A DNA stretch of 64,000 nt from Escherichia coli (GTDB lineage Bacteria; Pseudomonadota; Gammaproteobacteria; Enterobacterales; Enterobacteriaceae): assembly GCF_030013205.1 (NCBI RefSeq), contig NZ_CP122648.1; one strand, 5' to 3'. The notes below the pieces were generated by a model. The model saw only the letters and a program-made list of their open reading frames with translations, made no database searches and was not told where the DNA came from. Both the position numbers and the translations under genes were made by a program. Of this stretch, positions 19,646-51,886 are shown piece after piece. Numbering within the stretch: position 1 is the stretch's first letter; each line of letters opens with the position of its first letter.

Positions 19646-22600
19646 ATGGAGAACATTATGTCGACTGTAGATACCTCTATAGCAGAGGAACTCAATCAAG
19701 GAGGCTCAGATTTTATTCTGACTTCCCTCGAGGCTATGCGTAAGAAGTTATTGGACCTTACGTCTCGAAATCGACTTTTGAATTTCCCTATCACTCAAAA
19801 AGGGTCTTCACTACGTATTGTTGATGAATTACCAGAACAGCTTTATGAAACCCTTTGCTCGGAAATCCCGATGGAATTTGCTCCTGTGCCCGATCCAACT
19901 AGAGCGCAGCTGTTAGAGCATGGCTATCTCAAAGTTGGGCCAGATGGTAAAGATATACAGTTAAGAGCTCATCCTAGCGCTAAGGATTGGGCGCACGTCT
20001 TAGGAATCCGTACAGATTTTGATTTACCAGATAGCCATAAAACGGTTGTTTCTGATTCAGATAGAGAGTTGCTGGAAAAAGCCCATCAGTTTATCTTGCA
20101 ATATGCCCAAGGCCAGAATGGAAAATTAACAGGGATTCGTTCTGAATACGTTAATCAAGGTATAGCTTTGTCAGCGTTGAAGGAGGCGTGCTGCTTAGCA
20201 GGCTATGAAGGGCTTGAGGATTTTGAACGACAGGCAAAGGCTGGGAATGAGATTAGTATATCTTCTTCCAATCCCTCTCATGACGATAATCGGATACAGG
20301 CTCTGCTTTATCCAAATGAACTGGAAGCTTGTTTGCGCGCCATCTATGGTAAGGCTCAAACTGCTTTGGAGGAGAGTGGCGCCAACATCTTGTATTTGGC
20401 GTTAGGGTTCCTTGAGTGGTATGAAAGCGATTCCTCTGAAAAGGCACGTTATGCACCGTTATTTACAATTCCGGTGAGATGTGAACGAGGAAAATTAGAT
20501 CCGAAGGATGGTCTTTACAAGTTTCAACTTTATTACACGGGTGAAGATATTTTGCCCAATCTCTCTTTGAAGGAAAAACTTCAGGCTGACTTTGGCCTCG
20601 CTCTTCCTTTGTTCAATGAAGAGGAAACTCCAGAGTCTTATTTTGCTTCGGTGAAGAAGGTTGTAGAGCAGCACAAACCTAAATGGTCTGTGAAACGTTA
20701 TGGTGCACTTAGCTTGCTCAATTTTGGCAAGATGATGATGTATCTTGACCTCGATCCTGCCCGCTGGCCTTGTGACAAGCGCAATATATTGTCTCATGAA
20801 GTAATTCGTCGCTTTTTCACCAGTCAGAGCTGTGGTCAAGAGAATTCCGGCTTACCTGGTGGCTTCGGTCAGCATGAGTACTGCATCGATAGTTACCCTG
20901 ATATTCATGACAAGGTTCCACTAATCGATGATGCGGATAGCTCGCAGCACAGTGCGTTGATCGATGCTATCCGTGGTCAAAACTTAGTCATTGAGGGCCC
21001 TCCTGGTAGTGGCAAATCACAAACGATCACCAACTTGATTGCAGCAGCTCTGCTCAACGGTAAGAAAGTCCTGTTTGTGGCAGAGAAGATGGCTGCACTG
21101 GAGGTCGTCAAACGTCGCTTGGATCGTGCGGGGCTAGGTCAATTTTGCTTAGAGTTGCACAGTCATAAAACTCATAAGCGCAAGGTGCTGGATGATATTA
21201 ATGCTCGCTTGGTGAGTCAGGCGACCATGCCTACTATGGAAGAGATTGATGCTCAGATTTTGCGTTATGAAGATCTTAAGCAGCAGCTCAATGAATATGC
21301 CGCATTGATCAATAACCAATGGGCGCAAACAGGCAAAACGATCCATCAGATTTTGAGTGGTGCAACCCGTTATCGTCACAAATTAGATATTGATGCAACA
21401 GCACTTCATATCGAAAACCTTTCCGGGAAGCAGTTGGATAAAGTGACCCAATTACGGCTGCGTGACCAAATAGTAGAGTTTAGCCGCATCTACAAAGAGG
21501 TTCGTGAGCAGGTGGGGGCTAATGCAGAAATATATGAGCACCCTTGGAGCGGTGTGAATAACACACAAATTCAATTGTTTGACAGCGCTCGTATAGTCGA
21601 TTTGCTACAAACTTGGCAGACATCAATTATCGACTTTCAACATAGCTATCAAGAATATGTAGATAAGTGGGCGTTAGAAGGCGAAAGCCTTAATACGCTT
21701 CAATATATTGAGCAATTGGTAGAAGATCAGTCGAATCTTCCAGTGTTGTGTGGTTCAGAGCATTTCCCAGCACTTAGTGAGCTAGATTCACCCGATGCCA
21801 TTGCACGGGTGCGTCACTATTTAGATAGGTTCGAGTTGCTACAAGGTCATTATGTGGCCTTGAGCCAGGTTATCGAGCCTCAAAAGCTACGACTTTTAGA
21901 ACAAGGACAATCGTGTGACTTTCCTCGTGAAGAGCTGGAAAAATATGGTGCAGCAGAGGATTTCACTTTACGTGATTTGGTCAGGTGGCTTGAATCCATC
22001 CAATCAATTCATGATGAGTTATCATCTATTTATGCGCAATTAAACGATTTCAAAAATGCTTTGCCAGATGGTATTGCTTCGTATATCGATGATTCGCAAG
22101 CTGGATTGCTATTCTGCTCTGAGTTGTTGTCGATTCTGGGTGCTTTACCGACTGAGCTTATTAGAGTTCGAGATCCTCTTTTTGATGATGATGATATCGA
22201 TGCAGTATTGCGCGACTTAATGTGTCAAATCGAAACATTGCGTCCTTTAAGAGATGGTCTATCTACTTTGTATCAATTGGACCAGTTGCCTTCCCAAGAG
22301 ATGCTCGCGCATGCCGTTGCTGTTATCCAGCAAGGGGGATTATTTGCATGGTTTAAGAGTGATTGGCGTAGTGCCAAGGCACTGCTCATGGCGCAATCTC
22401 GTAAGCCCGACACTAAGTTTGCTGAGTTAAAACGCTGCTCAGCTGATTTGCTCAAGTATTCGGAGCTGTTACAACGGTTTGAACAAAGTGACTTTGGTAA
22501 TCAACTTGGTAATGCATTCCGAGGGTTGGACACCGACTGTGAACAACTCATGTTATTGCGTGATTGGTACAAGAAGGTCCGAGCTTGTTACGGGATAGGT

Positions 22601-25393
22601 TTTGGAAAGCGAGTTGCGATAGGCTCTGGATTATTTAACCTAGATGGTGAGATTATCAAAGGTGTGCATTTAATCGAGAAATCGCAGATTAGCTCAAGAT
22701 TAATGACTTTGGTTAAACGGGTCGAGCACGAGGCTAAGTTATTACCGCGTATTTCTAGCTTGTTGGAAGAACATGCATCTTGGTTAGGTGAGCAAGGTGT
22801 ATTGATGCAATCTTACCGACAGGTGCGGAATACTCTCATTGCCTTGCAGGGATGGTTTATCAATCCAGATATATCATTAGAGCAGATGACTCATTCCTCC
22901 GAGATTTTGCAAAACATAAACGATCTTCAGATATCCCTTGAAAATGACTCGTTACAGTTAGGGGCGTTTTTACAATTAACCCCATTGGCTTGCGGTGCGT
23001 ATAAAAATAATCAACTGACGTTAGACACTATTAACGACACGCTGAATTTTGCCGAGCAACTGGTTGATAAGATAAATTGCGTATCCTTGGCTACCCAGAT
23101 CAGACATTTGGCTAGTGGTAGTGATTACGATTTACTATGTCGTGATGGTGGGGAAATAGTTTCGAAATGGAATGAACAGATTAAAAATGCTGAGTTATAT
23201 GCGCTAGAAACAAAGTTAGAGCGGAGTCAGTGGCTCAAGTCGACTGATGGTTCTCTTAATACATTAATCGAGCGCAACGAAAGAGCAATACAGCAACCCC
23301 GTTGGTTGAACGGGTGGGTTAACTTTATTCGTTGTTACGAGCAGATGGATGAAAACGGATTGCAGCGAATCTGGAGTGCTGTACTTGCGGGCTCGCTCCC
23401 GATTGAAAAAGTTGAATTGGGTTTAGCATTAGCAATTCATGACCAGCTGGCGCGGGAGGTTATTCACATCCACCCTGAATTGATGAGAGTTTCCGGCTCA
23501 CAGCGCAATGCTTTGCAGAAGTCATTTAAAGATTACGACAAAAAACTGATTGAATTACAACGTCAGCGGATTGCAGCAAAAATTGCTTGCCGAAATATAC
23601 CAGAAGGGAATTCTGGTGGTAAGAAAAGCGAATATACAGAACTAGCTTTGATCAAAAATGAGTTGGGTAAAAAAACCAGACATATTCCAATTAGACAATT
23701 GGTTAACCGTGCATGTAATGCGCTGGTTGCAATTAAACCTTGTTTCATGATGGGGCCAATGTCAGCAGCTCATTACCTAGAACCTGGACGAATGGAATTT
23801 GATCTGGTGGTGATGGACGAAGCGTCTCAGGTGAAGCCAGAGGATGCATTGGGTGTCATCGCGAGGGGCAAGCAACTAGTGGTCGTTGGTGACCCGAAAC
23901 AGCTACCACCAACCAGTTTCTTTGATCGAAGTGCCGACGGAGAAGATGACGATGATGCCGCGGCTTTAAGTGATACTGACAGCATTTTGGATGCTGCTTT
24001 GCCACTGTTTCCTATGAGACGTTTGCGTTGGCACTATCGTTCACGACATGAAAAGTTGATTGCATACTCTAACCGCCATTTTTATAACAGTGATTTGGTG
24101 ATATTCCCTTCCCCAAATGCTGAGTCTCCAGAGTATGGGATTAAATTTACCTATGTGTCAAAAGGTCGGTTCTCCAATCAACACAATATTGAAGAAGCCC
24201 AAGCAGTTGCTGAGGCCGTACTTCATCATGCGCAACACCGGCCGGGTGAGTCACTCGGGGTAGTGGCCATGAGTTCCAAGCAACGCGATCAAATTGAGCG
24301 CGCTATCGATGAATTGCGCCGAAATCGCCCTGAATTTAACGATGCAATCGATGGCTTATATGCCATGGAAGAGCCACTTTTTGTGAAAAACCTTGAGAAC
24401 GTTCAAGGGGATGAGCGTGATGTAATCTTTATTTCCTTTACCTATGGACCTTCTGAGCATGGTGGAAAGGTTTATCAACGCTTTGGACCTATCAATTCCG
24501 ATGTTGGCTGGCGTCGCTTGAATGTGCTTTTCACTCGATCAAAAAAACGGATGCATGTGTTTAGTTCAATGCGTTCTGAAGATGTATTGACGAGTGAAAC
24601 CAGTAAACTTGGTGTTATTTCGTTGAAAGGTTTTTTACAGTTTGCCGAAAGTGGCAAACTAGATTCCCTCACAACGCATACCGGCAGGGCTCCAGATAGT
24701 GACTTTGAGGTTGCTGTAATGGAAGCACTCAATCACGCTGGGTTTGAGTGTGAACCTCAGGTAGGGGTTGCAGGATTCTTTATTGATCTAGCTGTGAAAG
24801 ATCCAGGTTGTCCTGGCCGTTACTTAATGGGCATAGAGTGTGATGGTGCGGCTTATCACTCAGCTAAATCTGCTCGTGATCGTGACCGTTTGCGTCAAGA
24901 GGTTCTGGAGCGTTTGGGTTGGAGAATTAGCCGCATTTGGTCCACTGATTGGTTCAGTAATCCTGATGAGGTTCTATCTCCGATTATCCGTAAACTCCAT
25001 GAGCTTAAAACATTGGCTCCAGACGTTGTTGTACCTTCCTATGAATATGTAGAAACGATTGAGTCAAGCGCTGAAGTGGCGTCTGACTCAATTGATTCTC
25101 TTATGCCCAATTTGGGGCTTAAGGAGCAACTTAAGTATTTTGCCACACATGTCATTGAGGTTGAGCTTCCTAATGTTGATGCTGATCGTCGTTTGTTGCG
25201 GCCCGCAATGCTTGAGGCTTTGCTGGAACATCAGCCTTTATCACGTTCCGAGTTTGTTGAACGAATACCTCATTATCTGCGGCAAGCAACAGATGTATAC
25301 GAAGCGCAACGCTTTCTTGACCGAGTCTTGGCATTAATTGATGGCGCAGAGGCTGAAGCGAATGATGCAGCGTTTGAGTCTGAATTGGCATAA
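19646..25393 (+). CDS. Large (1915-aa) DUF4011 / SF1 Upf1-like helicase / Vsr-like (PD-(D/E)xK) endonuclease / DUF3320-type protein; architecture matches the single-gene Hhe-type defence family
   Basis: N-terminal LLDLTSRNRLLNF; Walker A GPPGSGKSQT; Walker B VVMDEASQ; motif III VVGDPKQLPPT; motif VI NVLFTRSKKR; C-terminal GIECDGAAYHSAKSARDRDRLRQEVLERLGWRISRIWSTDW. Start may be ATG 19658 (better-spaced GGAG). Confidence 0.8.
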   Translation: MENIMSTVDTSIAEELNQGGSDFILTSLEAMRKKLLDLTSRNRLLNFPITQKGSSLRIVDELPEQLYETLCSEIPMEFAPVPDPTRAQLLEHGYLKVGPDGKDIQLRAHPSAKDWAHVLGIRTDFDLPDSHKTVVSDSDRELLEKAHQFILQYAQGQNGKLTGIRSEYVNQGIALSALKEACCLAGYEGLEDFERQAKAGNEISISSSNPSHDDNRIQALLYPNELEACLRAIYGKAQTALEESGANILYLALGFLEWYESDSSEKARYAPLFTIPVRCERGKLDPKDGLYKFQLYYTGEDILPNLSLKEKLQADFGLALPLFNEEETPESYFASVKKVVEQHKPKWSVKRYGALSLLNFGKMMMYLDLDPARWPCDKRNILSHEVIRRFFTSQSCGQENSGLPGGFGQHEYCIDSYPDIHDKVPLIDDADSSQHSALIDAIRGQNLVIEGPPGSGKSQTITNLIAAALLNGKKVLFVAEKMAALEVVKRRLDRAGLGQFCLELHSHKTHKRKVLDDINARLVSQATMPTMEEIDAQILRYEDLKQQLNEYAALINNQWAQTGKTIHQILSGATRYRHKLDIDATALHIENLSGKQLDKVTQLRLRDQIVEFSRIYKEVREQVGANAEIYEHPWSGVNNTQIQLFDSARIVDLLQTWQTSIIDFQHSYQEYVDKWALEGESLNTLQYIEQLVEDQSNLPVLCGSEHFPALSELDSPDAIARVRHYLDRFELLQGHYVALSQVIEPQKLRLLEQGQSCDFPREELEKYGAAEDFTLRDLVRWLESIQSIHDELSSIYAQLNDFKNALPDGIASYIDDSQAGLLFCSELLSILGALPTELIRVRDPLFDDDDIDAVLRDLMCQIETLRPLRDGLSTLYQLDQLPSQEMLAHAVAVIQQGGLFAWFKSDWRSAKALLMAQSRKPDTKFAELKRCSADLLKYSELLQRFEQSDFGNQLGNAFRGLDTDCEQLMLLRDWYKKVRACYGIGFGKRVAIGSGLFNLDGEIIKGVHLIEKSQISSRLMTLVKRVEHEAKLLPRISSLLEEHASWLGEQGVLMQSYRQVRNTLIALQGWFINPDISLEQMTHSSEILQNINDLQISLENDSLQLGAFLQLTPLACGAYKNNQLTLDTINDTLNFAEQLVDKINCVSLATQIRHLASGSDYDLLCRDGGEIVSKWNEQIKNAELYALETKLERSQWLKSTDGSLNTLIERNERAIQQPRWLNGWVNFIRCYEQMDENGLQRIWSAVLAGSLPIEKVELGLALAIHDQLAREVIHIHPELMRVSGSQRNALQKSFKDYDKKLIELQRQRIAAKIACRNIPEGNSGGKKSEYTELALIKNELGKKTRHIPIRQLVNRACNALVAIKPCFMMGPMSAAHYLEPGRMEFDLVVMDEASQVKPEDALGVIARGKQLVVVGDPKQLPPTSFFDRSADGEDDDDAAALSDTDSILDAALPLFPMRRLRWHYRSRHEKLIAYSNRHFYNSDLVIFPSPNAESPEYGIKFTYVSKGRFSNQHNIEEAQAVAEAVLHHAQHRPGESLGVVAMSSKQRDQIERAIDELRRNRPEFNDAIDGLYAMEEPLFVKNLENVQGDERDVIFISFTYGPSEHGGKVYQRFGPINSDVGWRRLNVLFTRSKKRMHVFSSMRSEDVLTSETSKLGVISLKGFLQFAESGKLDSLTTHTGRAPDSDFEVAVMEALNHAGFECEPQVGVAGFFIDLAVKDPGCPGRYLMGIECDGAAYHSAKSARDRDRLRQEVLERLGWRISRIWSTDWFSNPDEVLSPIIRKLHELKTLAPDVVVPSYEYVETIESSAEVASDSIDSLMPNLGLKEQLKYFATHVIEVELPNVDADRRLLRPAMLEALLEHQPLSRSEFVERIPHYLRQATDVYEAQRFLDRVLALIDGAEAEANDAAFESELA

Positions 25394-25415
25394 TTAGTTA
25401 AAGGTAATAAGAACA

Positions 25416-25586
25416 GTGACAACTGTCGGACAACGTGAACGCGCAACTCAACAGCGCGTAATCAGGTTTTTTATTGAGGAATTGGGCTATCGTTATCTAG
25501 GCGATTGGCACAAGCGTCCTAACAACCGTAATGTTGAGCCTGATTTGCTCAGTCATTGGTTGATTGACCGTGGTGTTGTGGACTGA
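25416..25586 (+). pseudogene. N-terminal stub (56 codons) resembling a restriction R-subunit-type N-terminus, truncated by IS3-family insertion
   Basis: GTG-initiated ORF VTTVGQRERATQQRVIRFFIEELGYRYLGDW... ends in the TGA formed by the first bases of the IS at 25584. Confidence 0.45.
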
Positions 25587-25613
25587 CCCCACGCCCGTAG
25601 ACAAATTCTGTCC

Positions 25614-26062
25614 TCACGACGAGGCCTGTTCGAAGGCCTCCGGACTGACGCCGCCGAGGTGACTGTGGCGCCGGGCCCGGTTGTAGAACACTTCAATGTA
25701 ATCGAAGATATCCGCCCGGGCTAGATCCCGGGTTTTGTATATTCTCTTCCTGATGCGCTCTTTTTTCAGTGAACTGAAGAACGATTCGGCCACCGCATTA
25801 TCCCAGCAGTTGCCACGCCGGCTCATGCTCGGGACCAGGTTATTAGCCCGGCAGAAGTGCTGCCAGTCGTCACTGCCGTACTGGCTTCCCTGGTCTGAGT
25901 GCACGATGACCTCGCCGTCGGGTTTACGTCGCCAGACCGCCATCATCAGTGCATCCAGCGCCAGTTCGCGTGAGAGAGTGGGCTTCATCGACCAGCCCAC
26001 CACGTTACGGGCGAAGAGATCGATAACCACCGCCAGATACAGCCAGCCCTGCCAGGTGCGGA
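25614..26062 (-). pseudogene. IS3-family transposase OrfB, 3' exon (DDE domain C-terminal part) downstream of intron
   Basis: ...RTWQGWLYLAVVIDLFARNVVGWSMKP...HSDQGSQYGS...GNCWDNAVAESFF...; joins in frame with DVTYI on the other side of the intron. Confidence 0.8.
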
Positions 26063-26113
26063 GTAGAGTAAGAGGCAGGGCGTAGTCGGACTATTTCCCT
26101 GCCTCTCCTCCCC

Positions 26114-26147
26114 GAACCGGACGTGCACCTTTCAGCGCATCCGGCTC
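26114..26147 (-). ncRNA. Group II intron domain V (catalytic hairpin)
   Basis: Minus strand reads GAGCCGGAUGCGCUGAAAGGUGCACGUCCGGUUC, matching the domain V consensus pattern (GAGC...GAAA...GUUC). Confidence 0.8.
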
Positions 26148-26152
26148 TCCAT

Positions 26153-27676
26153 TTAAATGCTGGCGAACGCCATTGCCACTTCTGTAAAGCGCGATGTATA
26201 CGTGTTTCTGGTCTCCGTCCTCAGATAGGGATTACCTTCGGGTAGCCGCCAGCGGAACAGCTTCTTGCCTTGCCCCACCAACCGGTACAGTATTTCGCCG
26301 CTGAGCTTGCCGTGATTGGTTTTACCAAATAAAACCCACGTTTTGCTCTGACCCGGTTTCGGTGATTTACACCACCACCTCATCAGGGAAGCGATACCTG
26401 TACGGTATTTGTGGGCCAGCCAGTGAGCCAGCTTCCAGAACACGACACGGTCGATATAACTGAAGACTTTGGCCTTAAAATCAACGAACTGATAGAACAT
26501 GGCCCAGCCTTTCAGTTTTCGGTTGAGTTGTTCAGCCATATCGACTTTGCTTTCACTGTAGTTGCCTGATAACAGTGCTGTCAGCGATGCGGCGAAGTTT
26601 CTGGCTTTCTCCTGCGGGATCGTTGAGACCACTCGCATCTCGCCATAACGACTGCGTTTGCGAATGATCCTGTGCCCCAGAAAGATAAAGCCGTCATTAA
26701 CATGGGTGATTTTAGTCTTATCCATGTTCAGCCTGAGTTTCAGACTGCCTTTGAGCACACCCCGACACTCCTCCCTGATGGCTTCCGCCTGTGCTTTGGT
26801 GCCTTTGACGATGAGGACAAAATCATCGGCATAGCGGCAGTACGCCACCGCGGGTTTCCACTGCCAGTTTTCTCTGACCGCCGTACTTCGGCCCCGTTGG
26901 ATACTGTTATTCCAGTACCACCGATCTTTTCTGGCTTTCCCGCTCAGGTAGCGCTCATGCAGGTATTGATCGAACTCATTCAGCATGATGTTCGATAATA
27001 GCGGCGATATAACACCGCCCTGTGGCACACCTTCACTGGCCGCCCGAAAGAGACCGACATCGATATGTCCCGCCTTGATGGTTTTCCACAGCAGAGTCAT
27101 GAAACGTGCGTCACTGATCCTGCGGCGTACAGCCTTCATCAGCAGTCGATGATGTACGGTGTCGAAGTAACTGGACAGGTCGCCTTCAATCACCCAGCGT
27201 CCCCGGGTTTCACCACAGTCTGTGAGCTGTAATTTCACCGTGCGGATCGCGTGGTGGACACTGCGCTCAGGCCGGAAGCCATATGAGAGCGTATGAAAAT
27301 CACTCTCCCATATCGGCTCCATCGCCATCAGCATGGCCCGCTGAACAATACGATCCCGCAACGCGGGGATACCCAGTGGTCGCAGTTTGCCGTTGCTTTT
27401 AGGGATGTAAACCCGTCTGGCGGGCAAGGGCTGGTAGTGGCCTGAGAGTAATTCATCCCTGAGGATTTGCAGCTCAACAGCCAGTCTGGCCTGTAGCATT
27501 GTTTTGTTCACGCCATCAACGCCGGGGGTATGGGCCCCCTTTGATGAAAGCGTGATCCGCGCCGCTTCAGCCAGCCATTCTGGTTGTGTTATCAGACGCA
27601 GCAGCCGTTGAATCCGTAGGGACGGATCGGTGGCTGCCCATGTGGCAAGCTTGCGTTGCATTTCGCTGATTATCAA
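26153..27676 (-). CDS. Group II intron-encoded reverse transcriptase/maturase
   Basis: 507-aa ORF with RT motifs incl. YADDFV; no HNH-type endonuclease cysteine motifs seen at C-terminus. Confidence 0.85.
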   Translation of the reverse strand: MIISEMQRKLATWAATDPSLRIQRLLRLITQPEWLAEAARITLSSKGAHTPGVDGVNKTMLQARLAVELQILRDELLSGHYQPLPARRVYIPKSNGKLRPLGIPALRDRIVQRAMLMAMEPIWESDFHTLSYGFRPERSVHHAIRTVKLQLTDCGETRGRWVIEGDLSSYFDTVHHRLLMKAVRRRISDARFMTLLWKTIKAGHIDVGLFRAASEGVPQGGVISPLLSNIMLNEFDQYLHERYLSGKARKDRWYWNNSIQRGRSTAVRENWQWKPAVAYCRYADDFVLIVKGTKAQAEAIREECRGVLKGSLKLRLNMDKTKITHVNDGFIFLGHRIIRKRSRYGEMRVVSTIPQEKARNFAASLTALLSGNYSESKVDMAEQLNRKLKGWAMFYQFVDFKAKVFSYIDRVVFWKLAHWLAHKYRTGIASLMRWWCKSPKPGQSKTWVLFGKTNHGKLSGEILYRLVGQGKKLFRWRLPEGNPYLRTETRNTYTSRFTEVAMAFASI

Positions 27677-28332
27677 AGGTCTTCACCTCGTTAGGTCAGT
27701 TAATTCACGTCGTAAACACATTCAAACTGCTTCCCTTCGCCATGTAATGGGCTTTCCCCATCGCGGACTACTACGGAAGCTCCGCCAGCCAGCGCGTCAT
27801 CGGAGCCATGCCCCCTTAACATCCGTCGCTGACCTTCCCCGGTTTACCTGCCTGGACTCAGGCATACTGAGGAGGCTGCCCGTCGCACTCTTTATCCTTG
27901 CTTGCCGCAAGTTGGCAGAAGTCAGCAACGCAAGCGTGATAGACGCTGCTGCCCCGGTGTTTCGCATACATGTCAAAACACCTTCGACCGGCAGTGCTTA
28001 CGTATCACTGCCAGTTCCTCCTGCACGGCCTGTCAGATCACGTAGGCCGTGGTGACGTTTTCAACCCACAGAGGCGGATTAACGGGTTCATGTTCTTCAG
28101 CCTTTCAGTACTTAACCTTGAGGATCATCTCGGCTTAGTGATCTCGCCTCAATCCCCGTTGTCAGCGGGTTACATCACCTTGCGGGCATGCCGCAGGTCA
28201 CTGCCGCTCAGGTTCTCCACCGTCACACCCGGTGGGATTGTTGGGTTTCTCATCGTGAGTTACCGGTTCAATATTCCAGACAGATTCGCGGTTCATTTAA
28301 GCATCCATGCCCGCCCTGAACTCCGGGCACAC

Positions 28333-28761
28333 TATAGGTCACATCACCGCACCACACCTGATTTGGCTCGGTCACGGCGAACTGCCGTTCAAGGTAGTTA
28401 GGGATAGCAACGTGCTCATGACCGCCACGCTTATACCGGTGAGTCGGCTGCTGGCAACTGACCAGTCCCAGCTCTTTCATGAGTCTGCCAGCAAGCCAGC
28501 GCCCCATCTGGTAGCCTCTCCGGGTTGCCATTGTGGCGATGCTTCTTGCTCCGGCAGAGCCGTGGCTGATGCCATGCAGTTCAAGTACCTGGCTGCGTAA
28601 TACAGCCCGTCTGCCGTCTGGCTTTTCAGGACGGTTTTTCCAGTATTTGTAGCTGCTGCGATGGACCCCGAACACATGGCAGAGAGTGGCCACAGGATAA
28701 CGCGCCCTGAGTTTCCCGATTATCGAGAACTGTTCAGGGAGTCTGACATCAAGAGCGCGGT
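28333..28761 (-). pseudogene. IS3-family transposase OrfB, 5' part (between IS30 and intron)
   Basis: ...[44 protein letters not shown]...[11 protein letters not shown] then intron 5' end. Confidence 0.7.
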
Positions 28762-29982
28762 TGTAGATTCAATTGGTCAACGCAACAGTTATGTGAAAAC
28801 ATGGGGTTGCGGAGTTTTTTTGAATGAGACGAACATTTACAGCAGAGGAAAAAGCCTCTGTTTTTGAACTATGGAAGAACGGAACAGGCTTCAGTGAAAT
28901 AGCGAATATCCTGGGTTCAAAACCCGGAACGATCTTCACTATGTTAAGGGATACTGGCGGCATAAAACCCCATGAGCGTAAGCGGGCTGTAGCTCACCTG
29001 ACACTGTCTGAGCGCGAGGAGATACGAGCTGGTTTGTCAGCCAAAATGAGCATTCGTGCGATAGCTACTGCGCTGAATCGCAGTCCTTCGACGATCTCAC
29101 GTGAAGTTCAGCGTAATCGGGGCAGACGCTATTACAAAGCTGTTGATGCTAATAACCGAGCCAACAGAATGGCGAAAAGGCCAAAACCGTGCTTACTGGA
29201 TCAAAATTTGCCATTGCGAAAGCTTGTTCTGGAAAAGCTGGAGATGAAATGGTCTCCAGAGCAAATATCAGGATGGTTAAGGCGAACAAAACCACGTCAA
29301 AAAACGCTGCGAATATCACCTGAGACAATTTATAAAACGCTGTACTTTCGTAGCCGTGAAGCGCTACACCACCTGAATATACAGCATCTGCGACGGTCGC
29401 ATAGCCTTCGCCATGGCAGGCGTCATACCCGCAAAGGCGAAAGAGGTACGATTAACATAGTGAACGGAACACCAATTCACGAACGCTCCCGAAATATCGA
29501 TAACAGACGCTCTCTGGGGCATTGGGAGGGCGATTTAGTCTCAGGTACAAAAAACTCTCATATAGCCACACTTGTAGACCGAAAATCACGTTATACGATC
29601 ATCCTTAGACTCAGGGGCAAAGATTCTGTCTCAGTAAATCAGGCTCTTACCGACAAATTCCTGAGTTTACCGTCAGAACTCAGAAAATCACTGACATGGG
29701 ACAGAGGAATGGAACTGGCCAGACATCTAGAATTTACTGTCAGCACCGGCGTTAAAGTTTACTTCTGCGATCCTCAGAGTCCTTGGCAGCGGGGAACAAA
29801 TGAGAACACAAATGGGCTAATTCGGCAGTACTTTCCTAAAAAGACATGTCTTGCCCAATATACTCAACATGAACTAGATCTGGTTGCTGCTCAGCTAAAC
29901 AACAGACCGAGAAAGACACTGAAGTTCAAAACACCGAAAGAGATAATTGAAAGGGGTGTTGCATTGACAGATTGAATCTACA
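28762..29982 (+). mobile_element. IS30 insertion sequence (1221 bp) nested in the IS3-family element
   Basis: Terminal IRs TGTAGATTCAATTGGTCAACGCAA ... TTGCATTGACAGATTGAATCTACA; length as expected for IS30. Confidence 0.9.
28824..29975 (+). CDS. insI: IS30 transposase
   Basis: 383-aa ORF MRRTFTAEEKASVFELWKNGTGFSEIANILGSKPGTIF... Confidence 0.9.
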   Translation: MRRTFTAEEKASVFELWKNGTGFSEIANILGSKPGTIFTMLRDTGGIKPHERKRAVAHLTLSEREEIRAGLSAKMSIRAIATALNRSPSTISREVQRNRGRRYYKAVDANNRANRMAKRPKPCLLDQNLPLRKLVLEKLEMKWSPEQISGWLRRTKPRQKTLRISPETIYKTLYFRSREALHHLNIQHLRRSHSLRHGRRHTRKGERGTINIVNGTPIHERSRNIDNRRSLGHWEGDLVSGTKNSHIATLVDRKSRYTIILRLRGKDSVSVNQALTDKFLSLPSELRKSLTWDRGMELARHLEFTVSTGVKVYFCDPQSPWQRGTNENTNGLIRQYFPKKTCLAQYTQHELDLVAAQLNNRPRKTLKFKTPKEIIERGVALTD

Positions 29983-30239
29983 GCGGCTTTTTTTAATATG
30001 TCCCGTTCGTCGGTAACCCGTTTCAGCTCTTTCTGGAGACGGCGGATCTCGGCCTGAGCATCTGACTGTTCTTTATTAGTGGAAGAATCCGGACCGTACT
30101 TCTTTATCCAGGCATAAAGGCTGTGGGTGGTGATATCGAGACGTGTTGCAACGCTGGCAACAGAATAACCACGATCAACAACCTGTTTGACTGCTTCAGT
30201 TTTAAACTCTTCGGGATAACGCTTACCGCTCATGGGCAC
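29983..30239 (-). pseudogene. IS3-family OrfA (HTH transposase N-terminal protein), 3' end disrupted by IS30
   Basis: MSGKRYPEEFKTEAVKQVVDRGYSVASVATRLDITTHSLYAWIKKY...; ORF then runs into the IS30 terminus. Confidence 0.75.
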
Positions 30240-30927
30240 CTCTCTTTAAGCCATCTTAAATGACTCTGAGGTGTCTGTTAAACCCGTGGCGATTCACGTA
30301 TCGCATTGGGCAAACTAAAGATGTGTATGTCTATTACCCAACTGTGAGAGATACTGAAATTACAACATTTGAAGAAACTCTGGATAACCTCCTACAACGC
30401 CGACGAGCATTGGCCAGAGATATGCTCTGCGCTACTCCCGATTTGAACTGTGCGGATTTTGAGACCATTTTGAAGGGAGCCTAACCGATATGAGCGGCAA
30501 TACTGCCAGTTGCCAAACCTGAAATAACACTTAGCTGTGATGATTCGCTATTACCTACCGATAGCTTCGGAAAACATAAATTAAAAATGCCCAGGGGAGT
30601 ACTATTATCGTTAGCATTACCCGAACGCCGTATTAACGGTTATTTATTGGTAAGTGCTACGTTCCATGGCAAGAGTTCATCAACACGGTTAGCCGACAGT
30701 ATATTGAGTATATGGCGCAGATATGCTTGCGGATTGATACCATTCAGACAGCAGGTCCCGCTCAGCCCGTACAGTAGAGCGCCGTTCACTACCGTAATCA
30801 CTGCCGAAAAACACATTGATTGCCCCTCAATAATCCTGCCGTCAACGTCAAAATTGCTGGTCGGGCTCGACTTATTTAATTGTGTAAACAGGGCCTCTCA
30901 GCGAAGGCCCTTATGCATCACCTGATG

Positions 30928-41005: not shown

Positions 41006-41143
41006 ATTCAATTTATAAACTACAATATTACGTATTATTTTTATATTTATGTCATTGCAAATATCAGACAAACAAGCATTATAACTCAATAAGTATATTT
41101 TTCGTGATTACAGACGGCATCTGCAAATCTGTGAGATGTGATT

Positions 41144-42352
41144 TCATCGCTGGTTTTCCATAATCTGAGACATCACATAATCCGCCCATGCCTGCATCAT
41201 CGGTATACGCTGATCCAGCAGATCAGTCCGGTGATATGCCGCCTCAACCTTATTTTTCAGCGTGTGGGCAAGCGCCCTTTCCGCCAAATCCCGCGAATAT
41301 CCCTGTTCGCTACACCAGTCCCTGAATGTTGAACGAAAACCATGTGCTGTAGCCACTCGTCCGGGTATATCACTGATGGCCTTCTTTTTACGCAGAAAAC
41401 TCGTCAACACCATATCTGAAAGGATCTGCTGCTTTCTGGGAGAAGGAAACACCAGTTCGTCATGCAGACCACGTATATTTTCCAGAACGTGAATGGCCTG
41501 TCGGGATAAAGGAACACGATGCTGTATCCTGGCTTTCATTCTTTCTGCGGGTATCGTCCATATCCGCTTATGAAAATCAATTTCAGCCCAGCGCATTCCC
41601 CTTGCCTCGCCCGAGCGGGTTGCTGTCAGTATCACCATTAATAACAGTGCCCGGGTAACATTATAAGGTTCATCTGTATACACACTGGTCGCCACAAAAA
41701 GCGGTAACTGCCTCCAGGGCATTGCCGGCTGGTGTTCATCACGTCCTCTTGATTGCTGTGGAAGCAAATGATCAACCACATCAACAGGATTCGCCACACA
41801 AAAACCATGCGCCCAGCCCCACTGCATAACAACATGAATGCGCTGTTTAACCCGGCTTGCCGTTTCTGACAAGGTTAACCAGACTGGACGCAGTGTTTCT
41901 GCCACGTCCGCAGCCGTAATCGAATCCAGCGTTTTTGCTCCCAGTTGAGGAAACGCGTAATTCTCAAGCGTCGATAACCACTGCCTTACATGCTTTGGAT
42001 TTTCCCATCCAGGAGACAATTCTGCATGTACACGCCGGGCTGCATCGGCAAATGTTGGGATAACAACTTTTTCAGCTTCAGCCTTTTTAATCTCCAGAGG
42101 ATCATCACCTGCAGCAAGTTGCTCTCGCATTATCCGGGCAGTACGTGCAGCTTCAGCAATACTGACCTCAGGGTAAGTTCCCAATCCAGCATTACGCCTT
42201 TTTTGTGTCACCGGACTTACATAACGAAAAACCCATTTACCCCTCCCCTTTACTGAAGAAGGATGAAGAGTCAGTCCTGTAATTCCCCCATGGGGCAATG
42301 GTTTGTCATCAGGTTTGATATGCCTTGCTTTAGTATCCGTCAATACTGCCAT
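41144..42352 (-). CDS. Tyrosine site-specific integrase (P4/CP4-type)
   Basis: 402-aa ORF with phage-integrase-like N-terminal region and C-terminal catalytic-domain-like H..R...Y spacing; adjacent to the att repeat. Confidence 0.85.
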   Translation of the reverse strand: MAVLTDTKARHIKPDDKPLPHGGITGLTLHPSSVKGRGKWVFRYVSPVTQKRRNAGLGTYPEVSIAEAARTARIMREQLAAGDDPLEIKKAEAEKVVIPTFADAARRVHAELSPGWENPKHVRQWLSTLENYAFPQLGAKTLDSITAADVAETLRPVWLTLSETASRVKQRIHVVMQWGWAHGFCVANPVDVVDHLLPQQSRGRDEHQPAMPWRQLPLFVATSVYTDEPYNVTRALLLMVILTATRSGEARGMRWAEIDFHKRIWTIPAERMKARIQHRVPLSRQAIHVLENIRGLHDELVFPSPRKQQILSDMVLTSFLRKKKAISDIPGRVATAHGFRSTFRDWCSEQGYSRDLAERALAHTLKNKVEAAYHRTDLLDQRIPMMQAWADYVMSQIMENQR

Positions 42353-42512
42353 ACGCTAATTCCTGTTACTCTGGTATGCCATTCAGTATGCCATTAGTCT
42401 CTCACTTCACTAAGAATACATTAGATAACATCGGACAGCAAAAATTGTAATGCATTGTTTATAATGAGGTTATATAACACTCCCGGATTAAGTCAGATTT
42501 ATTTCAGGCGGT

Positions 42513-50821: not shown

Positions 50822-51886
50822 TTAACTGTATGCATGTAGCGTACGTTGGCAAAGTGCCGAACGTACGCAATCCTCTTTACCGAATCGGACGATCCCGACC
50901 ATTTCATCTTCTTCGAAACGTTCCAGCGCGTCACTTAATCCGGAGCGCACGCCGCGAGGCAAATCGCATTGCGTGATATCACCGTTGACGATAACCGTCA
51001 CGTTCTCCCCGAGGCGGGTTAAAAACATTTTCATTTGCGCGGCAGTCACATTCTGCGCCTCGTCAAGAATGACGACTGCATTTTCAAAGGTACGTCCACG
51101 CATATAGGCGAACGGCGCAATTTCCACCTTCCCTATTTCCGGTCGCAGGCAGTACTGCATAAAGGAAGCCCCTAAGCGCCGGACCAGCACGTCGTAAACC
51201 GGGCGAAAATAGGGAGCAAACTTTTCTGCGATATCTCCAGGTAAGAAGCCAAGATCTTCATCGGCTTGCAGAACTGGACGGGTGACGATAATCCTGTCGA
51301 CATCCTTATGTATCAGGGCCTCTGCTGCTTTTGCTGCGCTGATCCAGGTTTTTCCGCACCCGGCTTCGCCCGTGGCGAATATCAGCTGCTTACTCTCAAT
51401 AGCCTTCAGATAGTGCAATTGCGCTTCATTTCGCGCGAGGATGGGCGAGGTATCGCGACTGTCGCGGGCCATACCAATGGCTTCTACGCCGCTCATCTGC
51501 ACAAGCGAGGTGACCGATTCTTCTTCACGCTGCTTATGGCTGCGCGAATCCCGTCTCAGCACACGTTTTGCCTCGCGACGAGCTTTGATCACTGCTTTTT
51601 GTCTTCCCATGGAGAGCACCTTGAGTTGTTTGTATTCATCACACGCGCCGTTGGCAGCGCGATTATGCGCACGAACATCAGAGGGTTGGCTTCCTTGTAA
51701 GCCATAGTTTGCTTTTGGATAAAATGCCGAAAAACGGCTACGCGCACCGTTTACGGCGTCGGTAACACATGAAAAGAAAGGATGAGGTTGAAAATACAAA
51801 GTGACGAGATGACTACCGGAGGAGAAATCTCCGCGAGTGGTGGCGCGCTGATTATCTAAAACATGTCCAGTACAGGACGTTACCAT
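50822..51886 (-). CDS. phoH: PhoH ATPase (phosphate-starvation inducible)
   Basis: 354-aa ORF with P-loop GEAGCGKT. Confidence 0.9.
   Translation of the reverse strand: MVTSCTGHVLDNQRATTRGDFSSGSHLVTLYFQPHPFFSCVTDAVNGARSRFSAFYPKANYGLQGSQPSDVRAHNRAANGACDEYKQLKVLSMGRQKAVIKARREAKRVLRRDSRSHKQREEESVTSLVQMSGVEAIGMARDSRDTSPILARNEAQLHYLKAIESKQLIFATGEAGCGKTWISAAKAAEALIHKDVDRIIVTRPVLQADEDLGFLPGDIAEKFAPYFRPVYDVLVRRLGASFMQYCLRPEIGKVEIAPFAYMRGRTFENAVVILDEAQNVTAAQMKMFLTRLGENVTVIVNGDITQCDLPRGVRSGLSDALERFEEDEMVGIVRFGKEDCVRSALCQRTLHAYS

Follow-up and report, generated by a model that had tools for sequence, protein, structure and literature searches.

In Escherichia coli K-12 MG1655, prophage CP4-6 carries a run of interrupted mobile elements in the order IS911A (335 bp), IS30A (1221 bp), IS911A-1 (429 bp), E.c.I4-tr1 (ykfC/eyeA) and IS5A, in which both IS911 pieces come from one and the same insertion sequence (IS), the IS30 is flanked by a duplication of AC, and the group II intron E.c.I4 is cut by IS5. 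A second K-12 arrangement, in KpLE2, has the order IS911B, IS30D, a fragment of IS600 and IS911B-1. E.c.I4 inserts at specific positions of IS3-like transposases, namely those of IS629, IS911, ISEc16 and ISEc31, and tandems of intron and IS have been suggested to be especially prone to ectopic recombination (PMC3522654). Passages of published work on IS30 hot spots report that this element targets such sites with a 2-bp duplication and generates deletions and inversions (PMC9333248). Here we describe a block of the same kinds of elements at positions 25579-30296 of a 64,000-nucleotide stretch of E. coli DNA (assembly GCF_030013205.1, contig NZ_CP122648.1; the whole stretch is called the window below). 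An earlier note, made from the sequence alone, had described the block as a single IS3-family element with a group II intron nested in orfB and an IS30 nested in orfA.

As in CP4-6, the IS30 of the window sits at the identical position in the tail of an IS911 orfA (…GGCTAC/IS30/ACCGCGCTC in CP4-6, with slashes marking junctions), the same 429-bp piece of IS911 lies between IS30 and intron, and the intron occupies the same site in orfB. Unlike CP4-6, the window has a 5' piece from a different IS3-family element (here called X), an intron exon 2 from yet another (here called Y), a full-length intron, an IS30 in the opposite orientation and no duplications. CP4-6 itself is essentially the nested picture drawn in the earlier note, with all of its IS911 parts belonging to one element. 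With KpLE2 the window shares an IS30 placed between two different IS3-family pieces at the same homologous hot spot and without a matching duplication, although in KpLE2 the partner is IS600, it is inverted, and there is no intron. Simple homing places the same E.c.I4 at a specific orfB position in IS3-family hosts (PMC3522654), whereas the two exons in the window belong to different host ISs and appear to be the product of recombination. All of the components have been seen in E. coli before, and the two kinds of join have precedents in K-12. The block is most likely a recombination scar of five pieces and not a working nested element (Table 1). The identity and boundaries of the five pieces could be fixed by comparison with other genomes, in which every parental configuration was also found. 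The comparison set for E. coli consisted of 5,426 complete genomes; L-numbers are labels of comparison loci in other genomes or plasmids.

Table 1. The five pieces of the block at 25579-30296 of the window and the remnants on either side.
Feature	Position	Strand	Identified from
Left flank: remnant of a 55-codon open reading frame (ORF)	25416-25578	+	Weak Pfam HSDR_N; downstream of hhe
Y 3' half: orfB C-terminal half and right terminal repeat ending TGGACTGACCCC; intron exon 2	25579-26062	-	NF033516, intact copies
Group II intron E.c.I4, full length, 2270 bp	26063-28332	-	RF00029, TIGR04416, K-12 identity
IS911/ISEc52-type piece, 429 bp: orfA tail and orfB N-terminal part; intron exon 1	28333-28761	-	L009, L004, IS911A-1
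IS30, 1221 bp; flanks GT and GC	28762-29982	+	NF033563, K-12 IS30A
X 5' end, 314 bp: left terminal repeat TGAATCGCCACGGG and orfA up to the slippery run	29983-30296	-	L005, L004, native X
Right flank: last 62 codons and stop of zorD (type I Zorya SNF2-like helicase)	30297-30484	+	DNA identity to intact zorD

The IS3-family sequence in the block adds up to 1227 bp (484 + 429 + 314) in three fragments from three elements; the amount of about 1.2 kb given in the earlier note was right, its assignment to one element was not. Each fragment matches a part of the IS3 transposase profile NF033516, namely positions 1-81 (62.6 bits), 89-225 (116.2 bits) and 226-369 (208.8 bits); the first two scores fall below the cut-off of 160 for a whole protein, which is normal for fragments. 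The Y fragment is 99.6-99.8% identical to intact copies of ~1230 bp (L010, L008) and 94.4% identical to another (L007). Intact Y elements possess a programmed frameshift and matched terminal repeats, and terminate in TGGACTGACCCC at both ends, so the block starts at 25579 rather than 25584 and the trinucleotide GAC belongs to the IS. The middle fragment is 97.9% identical to L009, which is annotated as ISEc52, and to L004; K-12 IS911A-1 was rejected as its donor, since at 96.0% identity it is more distant than the ISEc52-annotated copies. The X fragment is 99.7% identical to L005 and L004. Native X copies of 1229 bp on Pantoea and Klebsiella plasmids are 91-97% identical to it as far as base 314 and unrelated beyond; their repeats match each other (TGAATCGCCACGG), and one copy is flanked by a target duplication of GTG. 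Native and hybrid forms taken together, 1,976 plasmid records contain the X 5' end.

The outer ends of the block do not belong together: the left end is the Y right repeat TGGACTGACCCCACGCCCGTAGAC, whose true partner is TGGACTGACCCCACCCCGGTAGAC, and the right end is the X left repeat TGAATCGCCACGGGTTT, whose true partner is TGAATCGCCACGGATAATC. At the protein level, OrfA of X shares 33% amino-acid identity with that of IS911 and 49% with that of Y, the OrfB N-termini of the IS911-type piece and Y share 26%, and the OrfB C-termini of Y and IS911 share 45%. No IS3-family transposase can be made from the block. PGAP offers labels for relatives only (for Y, ISEc24-family at 86%; for the middle piece, ISEc52-family). 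X may resemble the 1229-bp ISEhe3, and Y could be ISEc16, a reported host of E.c.I4. In two intact Y copies (L010 1769-1850, L007 2269-2350) the 41-bp left end is tandemly duplicated (TGGACTGACCCC...CTATAGTT twice), and the Y copies examined at the yecA locus are without a matching target duplication.

The defining parts of a group II intron, namely a 5' GUGYG, domains V/VI and a reverse transcriptase with a maturase domain, are all present. The 5' end is GTGTG at 28332, domains V/VI match Rfam Intron_gpII (RF00029) at 26063-26149 with 64.9 bits against a threshold of 40, and the ORF at 26153-27676 is intact and encodes a reverse transcriptase/maturase (339.8 bits with TIGR04416, for which the cut-off is 300). 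PGAP calls this ORF at 26153-27661. Its product contains the Pfam domains RVT_1 and GIIM; an HNH domain was not found in it with Pfam. The intron is 99.5% identical to the 1764-bp fragment in MG1655 prophage CP4-6, which was named E.c.I4-tr1 in the supplement of Leclercq & Cordaux 2012 (PMC3522654), and on this sequence match it is E.c.I4. Alleles without the intron are contiguous across the insertion site, both of IS911 type (L006 and L021; GTGACCTATA/TCTGGACGGG) and of Y type (L007 and L010; ACTTATA/TCCGCACCTGG), and thereby fix both intron junctions to the base. E.c.I4 is carried by 2664 of the 5,426 E. coli genomes, at up to 20 places per genome. A simple complementarity search for pairs of exon-binding and intron-binding sites (EBS-IBS) against the flanking exons returned ambiguous candidates.

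The IS30 likewise has the features of its family: a length of 1221 bp, terminal inverted repeats of ~26 bp (TGTAGATTCAAT.../...GAATCTACA) and an IS30-family transposase (NF033563, 276 bits), encoded by an intact ORF of 383 codons at 28824-29975. Identity of this IS30 to the annotated, curated IS30A of K-12 is 99.6%. As both proteins are intact, IS30 and the intron may still be mobile. The element lies at the 3' end of orfA, immediately past the A7G slippery run, and is flanked by GT (28760-28761) and GC (29983-29984) instead of a 2-bp target duplication, whereas IS30 at the same IS911 position in strain ET76 and in K-12 has a perfect one (GT and GT, or AC and AC on the IS911 strand). For both inserted elements, the sizes and boundaries in the earlier note agree exactly with the intron-less alleles and with IS30A, and it had also placed the insertion points, in orfB and at the orfA 3' end, and the order of the pieces correctly.

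The IS type changes twice within the block. The change from IS911 type to Y type falls between exon positions -5 and +3, that is, at the intron, with exon 1 of IS911 type through its last base and exon 2 of Y type from its first. The change from IS911 type to X type falls at IS30. On the side of the middle piece, the junction IS30/ACCGCGCTCTTG is the IS911::IS30 junction of K-12 CP4-6 and ET76 (/ACCGCGCTC); on the opposite side, AAAGCCGC/IS30 is an X::IS30 junction, which is also present in L004 and L007. The window thus has one IS30 flank from each kind of insertion, hence GT and GC. Removing 2 nt at the IS30 junction restores the usual layout, in which orfA is read in frame 0 and orfB in frame -1. 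The block as a whole has no 3-4 bp target duplication, being bordered by GTTG (25575-25578) and CGT(A) (30297-30300). Because the IS type switches exactly at the intron and at IS30, neither IS30 nor the block has a target duplication. The earlier note had given the ends as 25584 and 30296 and the flanking trinucleotides as GAC and CGT, and had seen no target duplication in them; the right end and the missing duplication stand, but the intact Y ends move the left end by 5 bp, so that GAC falls inside the IS and the block is in fact flanked by GTTG and CGT. An apparent GAC/GAC target duplication in ET76 was rejected as an artefact of this 5-bp boundary error, GAC lying within the Y terminal TGGAC.

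The configurations from which such a block could arise were found in other genomes. In strain S43 the order is hhe, the 185 bp that precede the block in the window, Y 3' half, E.c.I4, Y 5' half and yecA, which amounts to a complete Y with the intron. The junction between Y exon 1 and the intron, which marks a complete Y carrying E.c.I4, occurs in 107 genomes (S43-type); the two that we inspected, S43 and 13C1065T, both have complete Y and intron at the hhe locus with the same left junction as the window. In strain 203740 the Y at the hhe locus carries an IS66 element instead. A further 15 genomes (ET76-type) match the window in the left flank, Y 3' half, intron, IS911-type middle and IS30, but continue beyond IS30 into a genuine IS911 5' end, followed by a right flank that is not that of the window. 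The middle piece of ET76 differs from that of the window at 22 positions clustered at 28387-28706; in the ET76 type this piece is 100% identical to K-12 IS911B-1, and IS911 and IS30 together are 99.4% identical to IS911B and IS30D of KpLE2. ET76-type and window-type loci therefore represent at least two different recombinants from the locus of Y with intron. The window type was found in 17 genomes of porcine enterotoxigenic E. coli (ETEC)/O139, bases 25400-30500 being 100% identical in 15 complete pig ETEC/O139:H1 genomes and 99.8% identical in 2 more.

We propose that the block was assembled through the sequences that these elements share. Both insert at fixed and conserved places in IS3-family transposase genes, E.c.I4 after ...TATA in orfB and IS30 just past the slippery run at the end of orfA, and identical copies of intron and IS30 therefore reside in different IS3-family hosts in the genome and on plasmids. 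Joining two such copies would then swap the halves of the host ISs plus everything beyond them. The ancestral locus, with hhe, the remnant and Y carrying E.c.I4, would have been linked, by way of the intron, to an IS911-type element with IS30 already in it, and the IS911-type piece would have been joined at IS30 to the 5' end of an X element sitting in zorD. The outcome would be the Y 3' half, intron, IS911 middle, IS30 and X 5' end in a row, between unrelated flanks and with the intervening DNA lost, and the Hhe module would have come to abut the last 62 codons of a destroyed Zorya. We infer both this order of events and homologous recombination as the process behind the joins, with IS30 transposition a possibility for the IS30 join. 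For the intron join, homologous recombination is the sole plausible route. The missing duplications would on this account result from the joining of different copies of intron and IS30, and not from a deletion made by an IS3 transposase.

Several observations weigh against this reconstruction. Single-nucleotide polymorphisms (SNPs) in the intron, compared with S43, ET76, L004 and L005, comprise five private changes with no partition into 5' and 3' parts, and those in IS30, compared with K-12 IS30A and IS30D, ET76 and L007, are private only, so that a crossover was located in neither. The reciprocal product was not found, and the chromosome of the related strain EC556 has a single IS30, a single intron copy and no second copy of these IS types. 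A junction of the zorD 5' part, CGT and an IS911-type right repeat is present in 0 of 5,426 genomes, which leaves a simple X-type insertion in zorD undocumented as a first step. X and Y are working names. Finally, at IS30, both homologous exchange and intramolecular transposition are possible and would give the same product. The events probably predate the lineage of the window, and the mosaic island may have been acquired ready-assembled.

The last of these points opens the way to an alternative that leaves the chimera unchanged but credits the IS30 join to transposition rather than to RecA-type recombination, the IS30 resident in IS911 having hit the hot spot in X intramolecularly to cause a deletion or inversion with one old and one new flank. 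Hot-spot insertion, 2-bp duplication and intramolecular deletions and inversions are all described in passages of the IS30 work (PMC9333248), the same homologous position has been hit in IS911, IS600 and X in both orientations, and the transposase ORF is intact. The sequence does not separate this route from homologous exchange between two IS30 copies. An X::IS30 with the AAAGCCGC/ flank exists independently in L004 and L007, so a second IS30 was available as partner, and transposition of IS30 would leave the intron join unexplained; we consider it possible but would not favor it. That a hybrid IS with an IS911-type 5' part and a Y-type 3' part, formed by recombination in a conserved stretch of the transposase gene, came before the intron, and that E.c.I4 homed into it later, is improbable. 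Transposing IS3-family hybrids do exist (such as the X/IS911 hybrid with a TAC duplication in L021), and Y and the IS911 type have ~55 conserved bases in common upstream of the homing site, but the type switch between exon positions -5 and +3 falls exactly at the intron, an intron-less IS911/Y hybrid occurs in 0 of 5,426 genomes, and complete Y and IS911-type elements both carry the intron, which provides two copies able to recombine.

There is very little to recommend the reading of the earlier note, in which one IS3-family element acquired the intron in orfB and IS30 in orfA and its transposase then made an adjacent deletion. In its favor, the order of the pieces mimics that of an IS3 element (orfA, frameshift site, orfB), matches to NF033516 run on from one fragment to the next, and both a flanking duplication and Zorya genes are missing. 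The outer ends are also loosely alike (TGA..CCACG...AGAC), which lends the block its single-element look but is explained by the relatedness of X and Y noted above for OrfA. Against it, the fragments are 98-99.8% identical to three different ISs whose counterparts share 26-49% amino-acid identity, and the two ends are repeats of Y and X with known partners elsewhere. The duplication that IS30 has in ET76 and K-12 is missing here, and the left junction is common to genomes with a complete Y. No intact copy was found: a reconstructed element of 1222 bp, with intron and IS30 removed, reached at least 80% coverage at no single place in any of the 5,426 genomes. With ends from different ISs, a middle of IS911 type and an old left junction, an adjacent deletion mediated by a single IS3 element does not hold. 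The decay of neighboring defence genes, which that deletion had been invoked to explain, is real insofar as Zorya was lost at the right junction, but such a deletion is not supported as its cause.

The block can serve as both a correction and a worked example, in that what looks like one IS with two passengers is a three-way chimera, and reading the missing target duplication as an IS3-mediated deletion would be a mistake. It provides natural evidence for the idea (PMC3522654) that site-specific inserters, here E.c.I4 and IS30, seed identical sequence in different host ISs and so promote ectopic joining, which in this case would have stitched the Hhe module to a Zorya stump within a defence island. 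No new type of element, mechanism or function is implied.

Three different IS3-family elements have IS30, in one or the other orientation, at the same homologous position 8-9 bases after an A6-7G frameshift run, with the junctions ...GGCTAC/ in IS911, ...GCAAC/ in IS600 and ...GCCGC/ in X. The sites are 28757-28765 and 29979-29990 in the window, 2030-2045 and 3258-3275 in L015, 2950-2965 and 4175-4190 in L016, 4305-4320 in L004, and 3810-3825 and 5035-5050 in L007. The frameshift region of IS3-family elements thus looks like a natural hot spot for IS30. Passages of PMC9333248, which used model plasmids, account for repeated insertion into a single sequence, the 2-bp duplication and non-matching flanks; the hot spot at the IS3-family frameshift is our own observation and was not found in those passages. 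A hybrid IS, in which the first 314 bp of X are followed by the IS911-type stretch that runs from the IS30 site to the right repeat of IS911, is present in L021 (2501-3723, on Klebsiella pneumoniae plasmid pCR14_4), L005 (4001-~7560) and L006 (3001-~4250). In L021, orfA and orfB are fused in one frame and a 3-bp target duplication, TAC, is present. The hybrid junctions, AAAGCCGC/GCTCTTG in L005 and AAAGCCGC/TCTTG in L021 and L006, are the product expected if IS30 were deleted between the repeats, CCGC or GC, on either side of it in the window. We tentatively suggest that IS30, through repeated insertion at the same site in IS911, IS600 and X, might serve as a movable stretch of homology through which IS3-family elements have their halves reshuffled; a window-like order of X 5' end, IS30 and IS911 could then be an intermediate type, from which loss of IS30 by microhomology would yield the X/IS911 hybrid. 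Deeper nesting was seen at the cob locus of E. coli EC17CM12 (L004 4001-9321), where a complete ISEc52-type element with E.c.I4 lies inside IS30, in the order X 5' end, first 250 bp of IS30, ISEc52-type element with E.c.I4, rest of IS30 and inverted X 5' end. The cob locus of JE86-ST05 (L005) has the X/IS911 hybrid with the intron and without IS30.

The genes on either side of the block are unrelated fragments, as the earlier note had recognized. On the left, the 55-codon ORF gave a weak match to the N-terminal domain of HsdR (HSDR_N, Pfam E = 0.0038) and a search of this short fragment with NCBIfam gave only noise. The 185 bp at 25394-25578 recur in 294 E. coli genomes, in none of which they carry a gene annotation; the remnant is also on more than 200 Klebsiella plasmids, and its junction with the Y end was observed on one Klebsiella plasmid. 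Judged by this wide sharing, the left junction is old. On the right, the junction lies within zorD, the remnant of which has 98.2% DNA identity to the annotated intact zorD of ECOD1 and 95% in O157 genomes. Missing from the locus are zorABC and ~3 kb of zorD, and upstream zorD sequence was not found in the window, which consequently lacks the complete set of four genes (zorA, zorB, zorC and zorD) that type I Zorya requires. ECOD1, with the same type of island, has intact zorABCD, from which it is evident that defence genes were lost at the right junction.

Remnants of the zorD 3' end that are cut within 8 bp of the same position were found in unrelated contexts, at ~8994-9010 in L012 and ~6000-6010 in L019 compared with 30297 in the window; the others lie next to a microcin island (IBS28) and next to a phosphotransferase system (PTS) operon (OSUCMP42NDM), with no IS at the junction. 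This suggests that an old break in zorD has been re-joined several times. Two strains of the window lineage, ETEC4068 and ETEC4075, have an intact zorD elsewhere on the chromosome, at ~694 kb, so the loss of Zorya at this locus does not always mean a strain without Zorya. In ETEC1701, also of the window lineage, an additional IS3-family element, ~1.3 kb long and equipped with a programmed frameshift (L003 8038-9266), has inserted in the region of the zorD remnant, ~200 bp beyond the X 5' end, and IS activity at the locus is therefore continuing.

The block is part of a genomic island between tRNA-Ser (5415-5499 in the window) and dgcT/pgaA that is rich in defence genes. A type I restriction-modification system and the hhe gene (19646-25393) are intact, hsdM and HNH genes are truncated, and of TOTE and Zorya only gene fragments are present. 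The tyrosine integrase of the island, placed by alignment to L001 (37680-38888), is at the dgcT end, at ~41100-42400, and the tRNA-Ser end has genes that are usually distal in CP4-type islands (cbtA/cbeA, antirestriction, Ag43 and GTPase). Either the island is inverted relative to the usual layout or two islands have fused. Rfam IS102 RNA matched with 73.3 bits at 8246-8482 on the minus strand, with the truncated Ag43 gene on one side and the GTPase gene on the other, at a site where the related genome EC556 has no IS annotated. Downstream of the island, in the region of the pga operon, the Yersinia small RNA Ysr251 of Rfam matched over its full length at 50827-51020 on the plus strand (192.8 bits), probably reflecting conserved sequence antisense to a pga/hms gene.

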